Source: Escherichia coli
Lineage (GTDB): Bacteria > Pseudomonadota > Gammaproteobacteria > Enterobacterales > Enterobacteriaceae
Reading direction: 5' to 3' (one strand)
Assembly: GCF_044324785.1 (NCBI RefSeq)
Contig: NZ_CP172127.1
Length of the DNA: 64,000 bases
Positions 32,243 through 54,425 of this stretch are shown piece after piece (position 1 is the first letter of the stretch; each line of letters starts with the position of its first letter). The position numbers and the translations under genes are program-made. The notes under the pieces were generated by a model. It had not been told where the DNA came from, ran no database searches, and saw only the letters and a list, made by a program, of their open reading frames with translations.

Positions 32243-33439
32243 ATGCTAAAAGTGTTATTGCTCTTTGTTTTGCTGATTGCGGGGATAGTGGTTGGCCCGA
32301 TGATTGCCGGTCATCAGGGTTACGTGCTGATCCAGACCGACAACTACAATATTGAAACCAGCGTCACTGGCCTGGCGATTATTTTGATTCTGGCGATGGT
32401 AGTGCTGTTTGCCATTGAGTGGCTACTGCGGCGGATCTTCCGCACTGGCGCGCACACCCGTGGGTGGTTTGTCGGACGTAAGCGTCGCCGTGCCCGTAAG
32501 CAGACCGAACAGGCGCTGCTGAAACTGGCGGAAGGCGATTATCAGCAAGTTGAAAAGCTGATGGCGAAAAATGCCGATCACGCTGAACAACCGGTGGTGA
32601 ACTATCTACTGGCTGCCGAAGCCGCGCAACAACGTGGTGATGAAGCACGCGCCAACCAACATCTGGAACGCGCAGCGGAGCTGGCCGGCAACGACACAAT
32701 TCCGGTAGAAATCACCCGTGTACGTCTGCAACTGGCCCGTAATGAAAACCATGCAGCACGTCACGGCGTTGATAAGCTGCTGGAAGTTACGCCACGCCAT
32801 CCGGAAGTATTACGTCTGGCGGAACAGGCGTATATCCGCACAGGTGCATGGAGTTCGCTGCTGGATATCATCCCATCAATGGCGAAAGCCCACGTTGGCG
32901 ATGAAGAACATCGTGCAATGCTGGAACAACAGGCATGGATTGGCCTGATGGATCAGGCGCGCGCCGATGACGGTAGCGAAGGTTTGCGAAACTGGTGGAA
33001 AAACCAAAGCCGGAAAACGCGTCATCAGGTGGCGTTACAGGTGGCAATGGCGGAACATCTTATTGAATGTGACGATCATGATACTGCTCAGCAAATTATC
33101 ATCGACGGCCTGAAACGCCAGTATGATGATCGTCTGCTGCTGCCGATCCCGCGTCTGAAAACCAATAACCCGGAACAGCTTGAAAAAGTGCTGCGCCAGC
33201 AAATCAAAAACGTCGGCGATCGCCCGCTGTTGTGGAGCACACTGGGTCAGTCGCTGATGAAGCACGGAGAATGGCAGGAAGCATCGCTCGCCTTCCGCGC
33301 AGCGCTGAAACAACGTCCGGACGCCTACGATTACGCATGGCTTGCCGACGCGCTGGACAGACTGCACAAGCCGGAAGAAGCCGCAGCGATGCGTCGCGAT
33401 GGCTTGATGTTAACGTTGCAGAACAACCCGCCACAGTAG
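32243..33439 (+). CDS. hemY: HemY (TPR-containing inner membrane protein)
   Basis: 398-aa ORF MLKVLLLFVLLIAGIVVGPMIAGHQGYVLIQTDNYNIETSVTGLAIILIL... Confidence 0.9.
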   Translation: MLKVLLLFVLLIAGIVVGPMIAGHQGYVLIQTDNYNIETSVTGLAIILILAMVVLFAIEWLLRRIFRTGAHTRGWFVGRKRRRARKQTEQALLKLAEGDYQQVEKLMAKNADHAEQPVVNYLLAAEAAQQRGDEARANQHLERAAELAGNDTIPVEITRVRLQLARNENHAARHGVDKLLEVTPRHPEVLRLAEQAYIRTGAWSSLLDIIPSMAKAHVGDEEHRAMLEQQAWIGLMDQARADDGSEGLRNWWKNQSRKTRHQVALQVAMAEHLIECDDHDTAQQIIIDGLKRQYDDRLLLPIPRLKTNNPEQLEKVLRQQIKNVGDRPLLWSTLGQSLMKHGEWQEASLAFRAALKQRPDAYDYAWLADALDRLHKPEEAAAMRRDGLMLTLQNNPPQ

Positions 33440-33486
33440 TTCTTTCTCACCCGGAGGCAAGCACCTCCGGGACCTTTCTGATACAT

Positions 33487-33693
33487 AAAAAAACGCCTGC
33501 TCTTATTACGGAGCAGGCGTTAAAACAGGTCTGTATGACAACAAGTGGGTGCTTCACTCAACGTTGTGTCCATGGTGTCTGATGAGGCATAAGCGACATC
33601 TGTCAGTGGACGATAAGCACCGTAAACGGCTCTGCGTCATTCCGGAGTTTATGAGGCACTAAGGCGAACATAAGAGATGGAATGAGCATCTAC
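33487..33693 (-). ncRNA. glmZ: Small regulatory RNA GlmZ
   Basis: Minus-strand sequence GTAGATGCTCATTCCATCTCTTATGTTCGCCTTAGTGCCTCATAAACTCCGGAATGACG...AACGCCTGCTCCGTAATAAGAGCAGGCGTTTTTTT matches the GlmZ sequence as I recall it, including its terminator hairpin and U-tail; located in the hemY-aslA spacer. Confidence 0.9.
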
Positions 33694-34117
33694 TCGTTTA
33701 TTATGCCACAGAGAACCGGGAAATAACATCCCTTAACACTTGTTATGAGATAATTCTGTAATCCTCTTTGCTTCCTGAGTAATAACTTCCTGAGTGAATA
33801 TTTCTCCTGCGCACGATTCTACACATATATATAATGAATAATAAAAGTCATTCAATTAATAACATATATATTAATTGCCGTTAAAACTAAAAACAGCATC
33901 AATAATCAACGCGATATAACATCACCGCCTTACATATCACCTGCGCCAGAGGTAGGATTGAAAACGCTCTCCTGATTTTCCAATTCATTTTCTGGATAAA
34001 TAAATAATTTATTTTTATCACTATTATTTATGCAATCATCCTGTCAGGGAGAGGGATCTCAATTATCAATGCTTAATTACGTCAACATTTTGACGACATG
34101 AAACCGGAGCATTTTGC

Positions 34118-35773
34118 ATGGAATTTTCGTTTTCACCCAAACTTCTTGTTGTGGCTGTCGCCGCCGCTCTTCCACTCATGGCCAACGCAGCAGATACCCC
34201 GTCAACCGCCACCGCACGCAAAGGCTTTGCCGGATACGATCACCCAAACCAGTATCTGGTTAAACCGGCGACCACTATTGCCGACAACATGATGCCGGTG
34301 ATGCAGCATCCTGCACAAGACAAAGAAACCCAGCAGAAGCTGGCAGAACTTGAGAAAAAAACCGGTAAGAAACCGAACGTGGTTGTTTTCTTGCTGGATG
34401 ATGTGGGCTGGATGGATGTTGGCTTTAACGGCGGCGGCGTGGCGGTGGGTAACCCTACACCAGATATCGACGCCGTTGCCAGCCAGGGGCTGATTTTAAC
34501 TTCGGCGTATTCTCAACCGAGTTCTTCCCCAACCCGCGCCACGATTCTTACCGGACAATACTCCATCCACCACGGCATTCTGATGCCGCCAATGTACGGG
34601 CAACCGGGCGGTCTGCAAGGGTTAACCACTCTGCCGCAGTTGCTGCACGATCAGGGCTACGTCACTCAGGCCATCGGGAAATGGCATATGGGGGAAAACA
34701 AAGAGTCGCAGCCGCAGAACGTTGGCTTTGATGATTTCCGCGGCTTTAACTCGGTATCCGATATGTATACCGAATGGCGTGATGTTCACGTCAACCCGGA
34801 AGTCGCCCTGAGCCCGGATCGTTCTGAATACATCCAAAAACTGCCGTTCAGCAAAGATGACGTTCATGCCGTGCGCGGCGGTGAACAGGAAGCCATTGCC
34901 GACATTACGCCGAAATATATGGAAGACCTGGATCAACGCTGGATGGAATATGGCGTTAAGTTCCTCGACAAGATGGCGAAGAGCGATAAGCCTTTCTTCC
35001 TCTACTACGGCACTCGCGGCTGTCACTTCGATAACTACCCAAATGCGAAATATGCGGGTAGCTCTCCGGCGCGCACCTCTTACGGCGACTGCATGGTGGA
35101 GATGAACGATATCTTCGCCAATCTGTATAAAGCACTGGAGAAAAACTGTCAGCTTGATAACACGCTGATTGTGTTCACCTCTGATAACGGTCCGGAAGCC
35201 GAAGTTCCGCCGCACGGTCGCACACCGTTCCGCGGTGCGAAAGGTTCTACATGGGAAGGCGGCGTTCGTGTGCCAACCTTCGTTTACTGGAAAGGCATGA
35301 TCCAACCGCGTAAATCTGACGGCATTGTCGATCTGGCGGATCTCTTCCCTACGGCGCTGGATCTGGCGGGGCATCCTGGGGCGAAAGTAGCGAATTTAGT
35401 ACCGAAAACCACCTTTATCGATGGTGTGGACCAGACATCTTTCTTCCTGGGAACAAATGGTCAGTCTAACCGTAAGGCCGAGCACTACTTCCTCAACGGT
35501 AAACTTTCTGCTGTGCGTATGGATGAGTTCAAGTATCACGTCCTGATCCAGCAACCGTACGCGTATACCCAGAGCGGGTATCAGGGTGGATTCACCGGCA
35601 CAGTAATGCAAACGGCGGGATCGTCGGTGTTTAACCTGTACACCGATCCGCAGGAAAGCGACTCCATCGGCGTGCGCCATATCCCAATGGGTGTACCGCT
35701 ACAGACCGAAATGCACGCGTATATGGAGATCCTGAAAAAATATCCACCACGCGCGCAGATTAAATCTGATTAA
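34118..35773 (+). CDS. aslA: Arylsulfatase (sulfatase family, periplasmic)
   Basis: 551-aa ORF with signal peptide and sulfatase active-site region (…[17 protein letters not shown]…). Confidence 0.9.
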
Positions 35774-35809
35774 GCCGGCGCTATCGCTACATCGGGCCAC
35801 ACTGACCTT

Positions 35810-35839
35810 GCCGGATGCGGCGTGAACGCCTTATCCGGC
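35810..35839. repeat. REP element
   Basis: 'gccggatgcggcgtgaacgccttatccggc' is the canonical REP palindrome, between convergent aslA and aslB. Confidence 0.85.
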
Positions 35840-35851
35840 AATCAACCGCAG

Positions 35852-35876
35852 GCGGCCACAAAATGGCCGCTTTTTT
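35852..35876 (+). terminator. Intrinsic terminator downstream of aslA
   Basis: Stem 'gcggcca caaaa tggccgc' followed by 'tttttt'; overlaps the aslB stop codon. Confidence 0.6.
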
Positions 35877-37110
35877 ACTTATTCACCACCATCAAATGCG
35901 CCTGCATAATGTCGCTGGCCGGACGACCGTGCGCCAGCAAATCAGCCATTGCTTTAAGATATGGCGGTAGATGGCGGAAATAACGCTGATACCCGGCACA
36001 CAAATAATTCAGCCCGGGTTTGCCGCTGGCATCGAGCATAAAGCGGTGTTTCGGACAGCCTCCCCAGCACGCTTTTAACACGTTGCAACTGCGACACTGC
36101 GCCGGTAACTGCTTAAATTTATCTTCACCAAACACCTGCTGTTGCGGGGAATCGATCATTTCTGCAATTGTTTGCTGGTGCATATTCCCCAGCCGATATT
36201 GCGGATAAACATAGTGATCGCAGGCGTAAACGTCGCCGTTGTGCTCAACAATCACCGAGCGCCCACAGGTTGGCTGATGATGGCAAACCGCACCTGGCGC
36301 ACCGACAAAATTGGCAAACGTCCATTCGATATTCATCACGAAAATCTTGCCGACGTCGCGTTTAATCCAGTGGTCGAATATCGCCACCAGAAATTCACCA
36401 AATTCATCGGGGCGCACCGACCATTCCGTCAGTTCGCCCTGAATATCGCCAGGCGCATGCAATTTCAGTCCATCGCGGGCAGCTGTTTCATCAGCCAGAC
36501 GCTCGACCACCGGAATAAACTGGATGAATTCCACTCCCGCATCGCACAAAAAATCATAAACCTGCAACGGTTGCTGCGCGCTGGTGCGGTTGACGCAGAC
36601 CAGCACGTTATAGTCGACATGATGTTTTTGCAGGAGCGTCAGGGCACGCATCACCAGCTTATGCGTTGGTCTGCCGCCTTTGGTCACGCGATATTGATTG
36701 TGGATCTCAGCCGGACCATCCAGCGATAACCCAACAAGAAAATGATTTTCTGCCAGAAATGCACACCATTCGTCATCAAGCAGAACGCCGTTAGTCTGGA
36801 AGCTGTTACTTATCTTCCTGCCAGCACCATATTTCGCCTGTAGCACCACGGCACGGCGGTAAAAATCCAGCCCGAGTAACGTTGGTTCGCCACCCTGCCA
36901 GGTAAAAGCCACTTCGTTTTGGGTTTCGCTGGCAGCGATATAGTGACGGACATACGCTTCCAGCGTGTCATCGTCCATATGAGTGACTGGCTTTTCGCGG
37001 TAAAGGGATTGTTTTTCGAGATAAAAACAGTAGTCACAGTTCAGATTACAATCGGAACCGCTCGGTTTCGCCATCACATGAAAAGCACGCGTTGGAACCT
37101 GTTGCAGCAT
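35875..37110 (-). CDS. aslB: Anaerobic sulfatase-maturating enzyme homologue (radical SAM)
   Basis: Start placed at MLQQVPTRAFHVMAKPSGSDCNLNCDYCFYLEKQ... (411 aa); CxxxCxxC radical-SAM motif; 'cat' at 37108..37110. Confidence 0.88.
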   Translation of the reverse strand: MLQQVPTRAFHVMAKPSGSDCNLNCDYCFYLEKQSLYREKPVTHMDDDTLEAYVRHYIAASETQNEVAFTWQGGEPTLLGLDFYRRAVVLQAKYGAGRKISNSFQTNGVLLDDEWCAFLAENHFLVGLSLDGPAEIHNQYRVTKGGRPTHKLVMRALTLLQKHHVDYNVLVCVNRTSAQQPLQVYDFLCDAGVEFIQFIPVVERLADETAARDGLKLHAPGDIQGELTEWSVRPDEFGEFLVAIFDHWIKRDVGKIFVMNIEWTFANFVGAPGAVCHHQPTCGRSVIVEHNGDVYACDHYVYPQYRLGNMHQQTIAEMIDSPQQQVFGEDKFKQLPAQCRSCNVLKACWGGCPKHRFMLDASGKPGLNYLCAGYQRYFRHLPPYLKAMADLLAHGRPASDIMQAHLMVVNK

Positions 37111-37223
37111 GGTCGCTCCTTGCCTGAAGTCATCCTTCAATAAGTTAAGGGCGAAATCATACCGTGGCGCAATGAGTTATTACGGGCGTTTATTGCGAAG
37201 GGAAAGTGACGAAATGCACAGAA

Positions 37224-37256: not shown

Positions 37257-37333
37257 TGGTCGGCGAGAGAGGATTCGAACCTCCGACCCACTGGTCCCAA
37301 ACCAGTTGCGCTACCAAGCTGCGCTACTCGCCG
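37257..37333 (-). tRNA. proM: tRNA-Pro
   Basis: Minus strand reads CGGCGAGTAGCGCAGCTTGGTAGCGCAACTGGTTTGGGACCAGTGGGTCGGAGGTTCGAATCCTCTCTCGCCGACCA, with encoded CCA. Confidence 0.95.
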
Positions 37334-37375
37334 AAATACTGCTTTTTGAATTTTTAGTTCAATTCTTTAAAGTCG

Positions 37376-37462
37376 TGGTGCGAGGGGGGGGACTTGAACC
37401 CCCACGTCCGTAAGGACACTAACACCTGAAGCTAGCGCGTCTACCAATTCCGCCACCTTCGC
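37376..37462 (-). tRNA. leuT: tRNA-Leu (anticodon CAG)
   Basis: Minus strand reads GCGAAGGTGGCGGAATTGGTAGACGCGCTAGCTTCAGGTGTTAGTGTCCTTACGGACGTGGGGGTTCAAGTCCCCCCCCTCGCACCA (long variable arm). Confidence 0.95.
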
Positions 37463-37482
37463 ATTGTCACAACTTCTAATAA

Positions 37483-37559
37483 TGGGGTGGCTAATGGGAT
37501 TCGAACCCACGACAACTGGAATCACAATCCAGGGCTCTACCAACTGAGCTATAGCCACC
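37483..37559 (-). tRNA. hisR: tRNA-His
   Basis: Minus strand reads GGTGGCTATAGCTCAGTTGGTAGAGCCCTGGATTGTGATTCCAGTTGTCGTGGGTTCGAATCCCATTAGCCACCCCA (with extra 5' G). Confidence 0.95.
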
Positions 37560-37616
37560 ACTACAAATCTTGTTACGCGGTATTACTACCACCGCAGCTC
37601 AAGCGCCGGGACTAAA

Positions 37617-37693
<77 letters not shown>

Positions 37694-53965: not shown

Positions 53966-54295
53966 TTACGCCAGGTTAGCGTCGAGGAACTCTTTCAACT
54001 GACCTTTAGACAGTGCGCCCACTTTGGTTGCCGCCACTTCACCGTTTTTGAACAGCAGCAGAGTCGGGATACCACGGATACCATATTTCGGCGCAGTGCC
54101 AGGGTTTTGATCGATGTTCAGTTTTGCAACGGTCAGTTTGCCCTGATATTCGTCAGCGATTTCATCCAGAATCGGGGCGATCATTTTGCACGGACCGCAC
54201 CACTCTGCCCAGAAATCGACGAGGATCGCCCCGTCCGCTTTGAGTACATCCGTGTCAAAACTGTCGTCAGTCAGGTGAATAATTTTATCGCTCAT
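53966..54295 (-). CDS. trxA: Thioredoxin 1
   Basis: Start placed at [50 protein letters not shown]... (109 aa, WCGPC active site); the ORF extends upstream to 54400. Confidence 0.95.
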
Positions 54296-54425
54296 ATATA
54301 ACTCCACAGGAATAAGCCTGGCGTGTTGGTTTCGTTGTTGGTGTAACATTAACCAACTTAAGGTTGACTTTATTTCACCGGATACGCTTTCGTAAAGCAA
54401 TAGTAAGCTGATATTCTACCACACT

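Follow-up and report, generated by a model that had tools for sequence, protein, structure and literature searches.

An intact and ordinary chromosomal copy of the small RNA gene glmZ between hemY and aslA in Escherichia coli

The interval 33487..33693 on the minus strand of the stretch of DNA analyzed here (64,000 nt, hereafter the window) is almost certainly the chromosomal E. coli gene for the small RNA GlmZ, acting by the mechanism established for GlmZ of strain K-12, a mechanism that we infer for this copy. The gene is already known, ordinary, and intact, and it is confirmed as such both by what can be observed in the DNA and by how these observations are to be read.

When the whole window was scanned against Rfam 15, the single strong small-RNA match was to the GlmZ_SraJ family (RF00083), which on the minus strand spans exactly 33487..33693 and takes in the complete model (positions 1-214 of 214), scoring 218.4 bits where 60 is the gathering score (E value, 3.4e-56). 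Chance is excluded by this score and E value. The reverse complement of the interval starts with GUAGAUGCUCAUUCC at its 5' end and closes with an 11-bp G+C-rich hairpin followed by a U run that ends at 33487, and all 207 nt are 100% identical to glmZ of K-12 MG1655 (b4456). In a three-way alignment, the 207 nt are the same in the window, in K-12, and in strain ST2747, with the K-12 5' end falling at window position 33693. The initial annotation, which had named this interval as glmZ, is thereby upheld on several counts: the coordinates of the covariance-model match are equal to those that it gave; its reading of the RNA from the 5' start through the terminator hairpin and U-tail is borne out by our own reading of the sequence, a terminator scan, and the identity to K-12; the identity of the gene follows from the full-length Rfam match, the perfect agreement with b4456, and the presence of a glmS-pairing sequence that the paralogue GlmY lacks; and the placement on the minus strand of the hemY-aslA spacer agrees with the list of open reading frames, the NCBIfam assignment of HemY, and RefSeq annotation. 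The features on which the following account draws are collected in Table 1.

Table 1. Features of the glmZ locus and its flanks (coordinates of the window; nt, position in the GlmZ transcript)
Feature	Position	Strand	Description and basis
hemY	32243..33439	+	Convergent with glmZ across a 47-nt gap; NCBIfam equivalog NF008017, 829.8 bits against a cut-off of 608
glmZ primary transcript, 207 nt	33487..33693	-	nt 1 = 33693, nt 207 = 33487; RF00083 and K-12 identity
SL3, intrinsic terminator	33487..33521	-	11-bp stem and 8-nt loop (33492..33521), U-tail 33487..33491; terminator scan
Single-stranded region, nt 147-172	33522..33547	-	Unpaired but for a 3-bp mini-hairpin; Rfam and RNAalifold
Pairing block 2, GACCUGU, nt 163-169	33525..33531	-	Pairs with ACAGGUU, about -40 of the K-12 glmS leader
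Pairing block 1, UUGUUGUC, nt 150-157	33537..33544	-	Pairs with GACAACGA of the K-12 glmS leader
SL2, nt 73-146	33548..33621	-	RNAalifold; helices 4-7 100% paired
SL1, nt 6-61	33633..33688	-	RNAalifold; helix 1 100% paired, 2 compensatory pairs
Extended -10, TGgCATAAT	33700..33708	-	CATAAT at -12..-7 (33700..33705), TG at -15/-14; read from sequence; same in K-12
Probable -35, ATGTTA	33724..33729	-	3/6 matches to TTGACA, 18-nt spacer; hexamer inferred from sequence
aslA (putative arylsulfatase)	34118..35773	+	Divergent from glmZ, 424-nt spacer; sulfatase family; name from RefSeq E. coli records

The ends of the gene deserve comment with respect to existing annotation. The published primary transcript of GlmZ is 207 nt long, and its processed form of about 151 nt is devoid of the pairing nucleotides (PMC4152352). 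The glmZ feature of the K-12 RefSeq record (NC_000913.3 3986432..3986603) has 172 nt and ends at the equivalent of window position 33522, just before the terminator stem; it is 35 nt short of the published transcript and leaves out the terminator (PMC4152352). The ends proposed in the initial annotation are those of the published primary transcript and improve on those of the 172-nt feature. Its further expectation, that annotation based on open reading frames would pass over the gene, is matched by the PGAP-annotated E. coli records listed (e.g., NZ_CP007394.1), in which no feature is present at glmZ.

The copy is real, complete, and under strong purifying selection. Of 5426 complete E. coli genomes, 5424 carry the 207 nt with an identity of at least 99%, and the 1.1-kb glmZ region is matched in 5425, which marks the window as a piece of the E. 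coli chromosome. In comparison with K-12, there are no substitutions among the 207 positions of glmZ as against 26 among the 471 positions of the two adjacent spacers (23 in the 424 nt towards aslA and 3 in the 47 nt towards hemY; Fisher p = 1e-4); hence, the RNA is much more strongly constrained than the DNA surrounding it. The substitutions relative to K-12 in the glmZ-aslA spacer include clusters at 33920..33926 (five) and 33804..33829 (nine) that are common to ST2747 and have the appearance of allelic blocks, not of point changes scattered over the spacer. Of the roughly 5427 places in the E. coli genome collection that match glmZ, a single one belongs to a record with plasmid status, and the same holds for the glmS leader; such records may represent chromosomal DNA that a plasmid has taken up or that was wrongly assigned to one.

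The fold of the RNA was analyzed comparatively, using homologues gathered by one 16-base pattern scan of species-representative genomes. The scan also matched a few non-enterobacterial MAG contigs, which are most likely chance matches. The 18 loci recovered from 17-18 other enterobacterial genera (ranging from Escherichia to Proteus, Morganella, and Providencia) are all full-length GlmZ matches in Rfam, with scores of 140-219 bits. RNAalifold was applied to the alignment of these 18 loci with the window copy (19 sequences) without recourse to the Rfam model, and the consensus recovers SL1, SL2, and the terminator SL3, as well as a 3-bp mini-hairpin within the single-stranded region. In this structure 99.3% of the cells are standard pairs, as opposed to 34-43% after displacement of the 3' partners by 1-3 columns. 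Compensatory changes are seen in 11 of 46 pairs, seven of them in the terminator, and the observed covariation score was reached by none of 500 shuffles. For the single sequence, the minimum free energy is -60.8 kcal/mol (z = -3.3 relative to shuffles).

Each of these modules has a counterpart in the published work on GlmZ. SL1 is bound by one dimer of the RapZ C-terminal domain in a cryoEM structure (PMC9841335), and SL2 is the central stem-loop that decides cleavage by RapZ and RNase E, with A125 and A127 touched by RapZ (PMC4737144, PMC9841335). In the window copy, nt 125 (33569) and nt 127 (33567) are both A, and within SL2 the pair 96/174 changes from U-A to C-G in 9 of the 19 sequences. 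The single-stranded region serves as the glmS pairing site, the Hfq contact, and the target of RNase E (PMC4737144, PMC4152352), and the 3' oligo(U) tail is an Hfq-binding module (PMC4737144). The SL3 stem preceding this tail has seven G-C pairs among its 11, with compensatory changes at seven of nine stem pairs across genera.

The pairing site itself could be examined with the K-12 glmS leader as a proxy for that of the source strain; of 5426 complete E. coli genomes, 5424 have the glmS leader. Neither glmS with its target site nor glmY, rapZ, hfq, or rne lies within the 64-kb window. For nt 147-172, the best duplex with the leader falls at -41..-21 with -19.2 kcal/mol and is made up of two blocks totalling 15 nt, the length published for the GlmZ-glmS pairing (PMC4152352). 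A duplex as good was obtained in 27 of 2000 shuffles (p of about 0.014), so that the result is only moderate on energy alone, yet it is found at the published place. The main RNase E processing site at about nt 151 (near 33543) is located inside the first of the two blocks (PMC4152352). The hexamer GACCUG (nt 163-168) is invariant in all 19 sequences, with G163-C165 engaged in the weak mini-hairpin and C166-G168 unpaired; such invariance despite little pairing is what a conserved seed should look like. Both UUGUUGUC and GACCUGU are absent from K-12 GlmY. Two broader duplex predictions were discarded, namely, an RNAduplex run with full-length GlmZ against the glmS leader, in which 469 of 500 shuffled sequences scored better, and one with the last 60 nt of GlmZ or GlmY, in which GlmY scored equal to GlmZ. 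These runs are meaningless because they ignore intramolecular structure and allow the arms of stems to pair between molecules.

The function given in the initial annotation, activation of glmS under control of RapZ and RNase E, is the published mechanism for the identical sequence, and the sequence modules that it needs are intact here (PMC4152352, PMC4737144, PMC9841335). The identity of the RNA, its ends, fold, covariation, complementarity to glmS, promoter type, and synteny are observations on this copy. Its transcription, binding of Hfq and RapZ, and cleavage in the source strain are predicted by analogy, with RapZ-dependent cleavage by RNase E and Hfq binding expected because the RNA is identical to the one studied in published biochemistry and cryoEM (PMC4737144, PMC9841335). 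The mechanism, as established for the identical K-12 RNA (PMC4152352, PMC4737144, PMC9841335), would run as follows. A constitutive sigma-70 promoter would give rise to the 207-nt GlmZ ending at the intrinsic terminator. Hfq, placed on the U-tail and the single-stranded region, would help the 15 nt of the two pairing blocks to anneal to about -41..-21 of the glmS 5' leader, and this pairing would open an inhibitory hairpin, thereby activating translation and stabilizing the glucosamine-6-phosphate synthase mRNA. At high levels of glucosamine-6-phosphate, the adaptor RapZ would bind SL1 and SL2 and present the RNA to RNase E, which would cut the single-stranded region at about nt 151, with loss of the pairing site. 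When glucosamine-6-phosphate is scarce, the homologous decoy GlmY would sequester RapZ, allowing full-length GlmZ to accumulate.

The promoter region points to expression by sigma-70. Within -40..+1, the sole difference from K-12 is a G for A at -23 (33716), in the promoter spacer, which leaves the -10 and -35 motifs unchanged; the allele of the window over -60..+20, with G at -23, is common to 1478 of 5418 complete E. coli genomes. In the published promoter analysis, the K-12 region -40..+32 is sufficient for activity and sequence upstream of -40 is dispensable (PMC3045617). The same work gives three consensus bases for the K-12 -35, a drastic cut in expression on its mutation, removal of the motif by deletion to -20, abolished expression on mutation of the -10, and no binding of GlrR (PMC3045617). 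A simple sigma-70 scanner called no glmZ promoter because it demands at least four of six matches per hexamer and the weak -35 has three. A sigma-54 -24/-12 element is not present in the window (5 of 11 matches). Likewise, no GlrR site was found within 300 nt upstream and none in the glmZ-aslA spacer even with one mismatch, and the whole window holds 16 sites with at most one mismatch as against 21.5 expected by chance. With none of these sites in the spacer, there is no evidence of GlrR control. To judge from its sequence, the copy has the sigma-70-only architecture published for Escherichia, and glmZ would form an independent transcription unit with its own promoter.

Farther upstream, a 10-nt direct repeat, ACTCAGGAAG, is seen at 33786..33795 and 33771..33780 on the minus strand, with a period of 15 nt; counted from the start of glmZ, the two copies occupy -102..-93 and -87..-78. 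In spite of variation in the neighbouring spacer, the repeat does not differ between the window, K-12, and ST2747. As the region beyond -40 is dispensable for the glmZ promoter, this repeat may instead belong to the regulation of aslA.

The reading of the locus as a functional glmZ has to be weighed against three others. An intact-looking copy that is silent or decaying in the source strain, for instance, by way of the G at -23, could be entertained from that one K-12 difference between -40 and +1. It is nonetheless very unlikely: not one substitution has entered the 207 nt while the flanks vary, both promoter hexamers are unchanged, position -23 belongs to the spacer between them, and an allele carried by well over a thousand genomes is common rather than a private lesion. 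The locus might, alternatively, encode a small protein, possibly with the RNA acting in a dual-function capacity, from the AUG at nt 5, where an ATG-initiated frame of 28 codons (MLIPSLMFALVPHKLRNDAEPFTVLIVH) extends over nt 5-91. The probability of this is negligible. Across the 19 sequences, the length of the frame varies between 9 and 67 codons, and beyond the first nine codons or so the frame is lost; these initial codons belong to SL1 and are conserved as such in their nucleotides; the leader of 4 nt leaves no room for a Shine-Dalgarno sequence, the AUG is within the SL1 stem, and the substitution pattern over glmZ is one of compensatory pairing rather than codon-wise change. We accordingly rejected this frame as a coding sequence, given that it is not kept across genera.

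The other alternative, that the locus is a paralogous decoy, either GlmY or a GlmY-like copy sequestering RapZ without pairing to glmS, starts from a genuine relationship. GlmY (b4441 in K-12, clan CL00011) and GlmZ are homologous RNAs with common, similarly built SL1 and SL2; 134 of the 207 positions are the same as in K-12 GlmY, the published identity between the two RNAs being 66% (PMC4737144), and a lower-scoring Rfam match of the same clan overlapped the GlmZ_SraJ match. However, GlmZ_SraJ is the best model in the clan competition, and the sequence is that of K-12 glmZ in full, not glmY. GlmY differs in being without the glmS-pairing blocks, which are present here, in its short single-stranded region and lack of an accessible U-tail, and in remaining uncleaved by RapZ and RNase E (PMC4737144, PMC4152352). 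It is also controlled by sigma-54 and GlrR and sits between glrK and purL, whereas the window copy adjoins hemY. Membership in GlmY_tke1 of clan CL00011 was rejected on what the locus displays, namely, the hemY-aslA position, no sigma-54 or GlrR elements, and a pairing site. We regard a decoy as extremely improbable and retain the reading as a functional glmZ, against which no observation speaks.

Compared with known systems, the closest is GlmZ of K-12 MG1655 (also SraJ or RyiA, b4456), which has the same 207 nt, 5' end, terminator, hemY and aslA neighbours, and sigma-70 motifs and differs in the A at -23, where the window has G at 33716, and in scattered substitutions farther upstream. The glmS ribozyme of Gram-positive bacteria is unrelated: it acts in cis, cleaving the glmS mRNA of which it is a part, and is not a trans-acting small RNA. 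It has the same purpose, which is feedback control of GlmS synthesis by glucosamine-6-phosphate (PMC4152352).

The genomic context combines a conserved side and a variable side. On the conserved side, hemY is convergent with and immediately downstream of glmZ in all 17 loci with enough flanking DNA; the conserved, convergent position beside the hemCDXY cluster is also described in PMC3045617. In the gap that separates the 3' end of glmZ from the stop codon of hemY (33437..33439), a G+C-rich hairpin of 8 bp, CCCGGAGG-N6-CCTCCGGG, spans 33450..33471 and is probably the terminator of hemCDXY on the plus strand, with a T-tract too weak to be called by the terminator scanner. A mechanical GTG open reading frame of 116 codons at 33232..33582 on the plus strand overlaps the hemY 3' end in another frame and runs antisense into glmZ; for this frame there is no evidence of its being a gene. 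Elsewhere in the window, at 54266..54365 on the minus strand, the TrxA 5' UTR thermometer (RF02773) is matched from end to end of the model; the score is 78.7 bits (gathering score, 58), and one loop has an insertion of 16 nt.

On the variable side, aslA is upstream of glmZ only in Escherichia among the sampled genera. In the non-Escherichia genera sampled, the argX-hisR-leuT-proM tRNAs are directly upstream of glmZ on the same strand, with the nearest tRNA at about 150-650 nt. The window has a tRNA cluster, Arg(CCG)-His(GTG)-Leu(CAG)-Pro(TGG), at 37257..37693 on the minus strand, and in both the window and E. albertii aslA-aslB (window 34118..37140) lie between glmZ and the tRNAs. An RtT RNA (RF00391) is found between the tRNA cluster and glmZ in Cedecea neteri (locus L041, 6445..6558) and Buttiauxella (locus L083, 3891..4003), and none is present in the window. 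GlmZ of Salmonella, Yersinia, and most other Enterobacterales is like the window copy in its family (140-219 bits), fold, invariant GACCUG, and convergent hemY. These loci differ on the upstream side. For the sigma-54 -24/-12 element, located at -27, 13 of the 17 non-Escherichia genera show at least 9 of 11 matches; most also have TGTC-N10-GACA GlrR sites upstream, and the tRNA cluster is the direct upstream neighbour. E. albertii resembles the window, with a sigma-54 score of 6 of 11 (5 of 11 in the window), no GlrR sites, and aslA-aslB interposed.

The window and E. albertii thus combine an interposed aslA-aslB with a lack of sigma-54 and GlrR elements. That Escherichia glmZ has lost sigma-54/GlrR control is published (PMC3045617) but unexplained. 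One possibility, which we put forward tentatively and consider rather unlikely as it stands, is that in Escherichia an insertion of aslA-aslB between the argX-hisR-leuT-proM operon and glmZ replaced the ancestral upstream region with its GlrR sites and sigma-54 -24 element, and that the remnant at -12/-10 (TGTGCAATAAT to TGTGGCATAAT) became a constitutive, extended -10 sigma-70 promoter.

GlmZ is among the best-characterized enterobacterial small RNAs, and a copy identical to the reference molecule holds no biological surprise. That the scan recovers it with the right 207-nt boundaries indicates that the scan is working properly, and the practical value lies in annotation, with glmZ unmarked in the PGAP records listed and 35 nt too short in the curated K-12 record. 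The sole new thread, and a mildly new one, is that a proposed insertion of aslAB may be linked to the lost sigma-54/GlrR control; if true, it would give a concrete structural cause for the escape of Escherichia glmZ from sigma-54/GlrR control.
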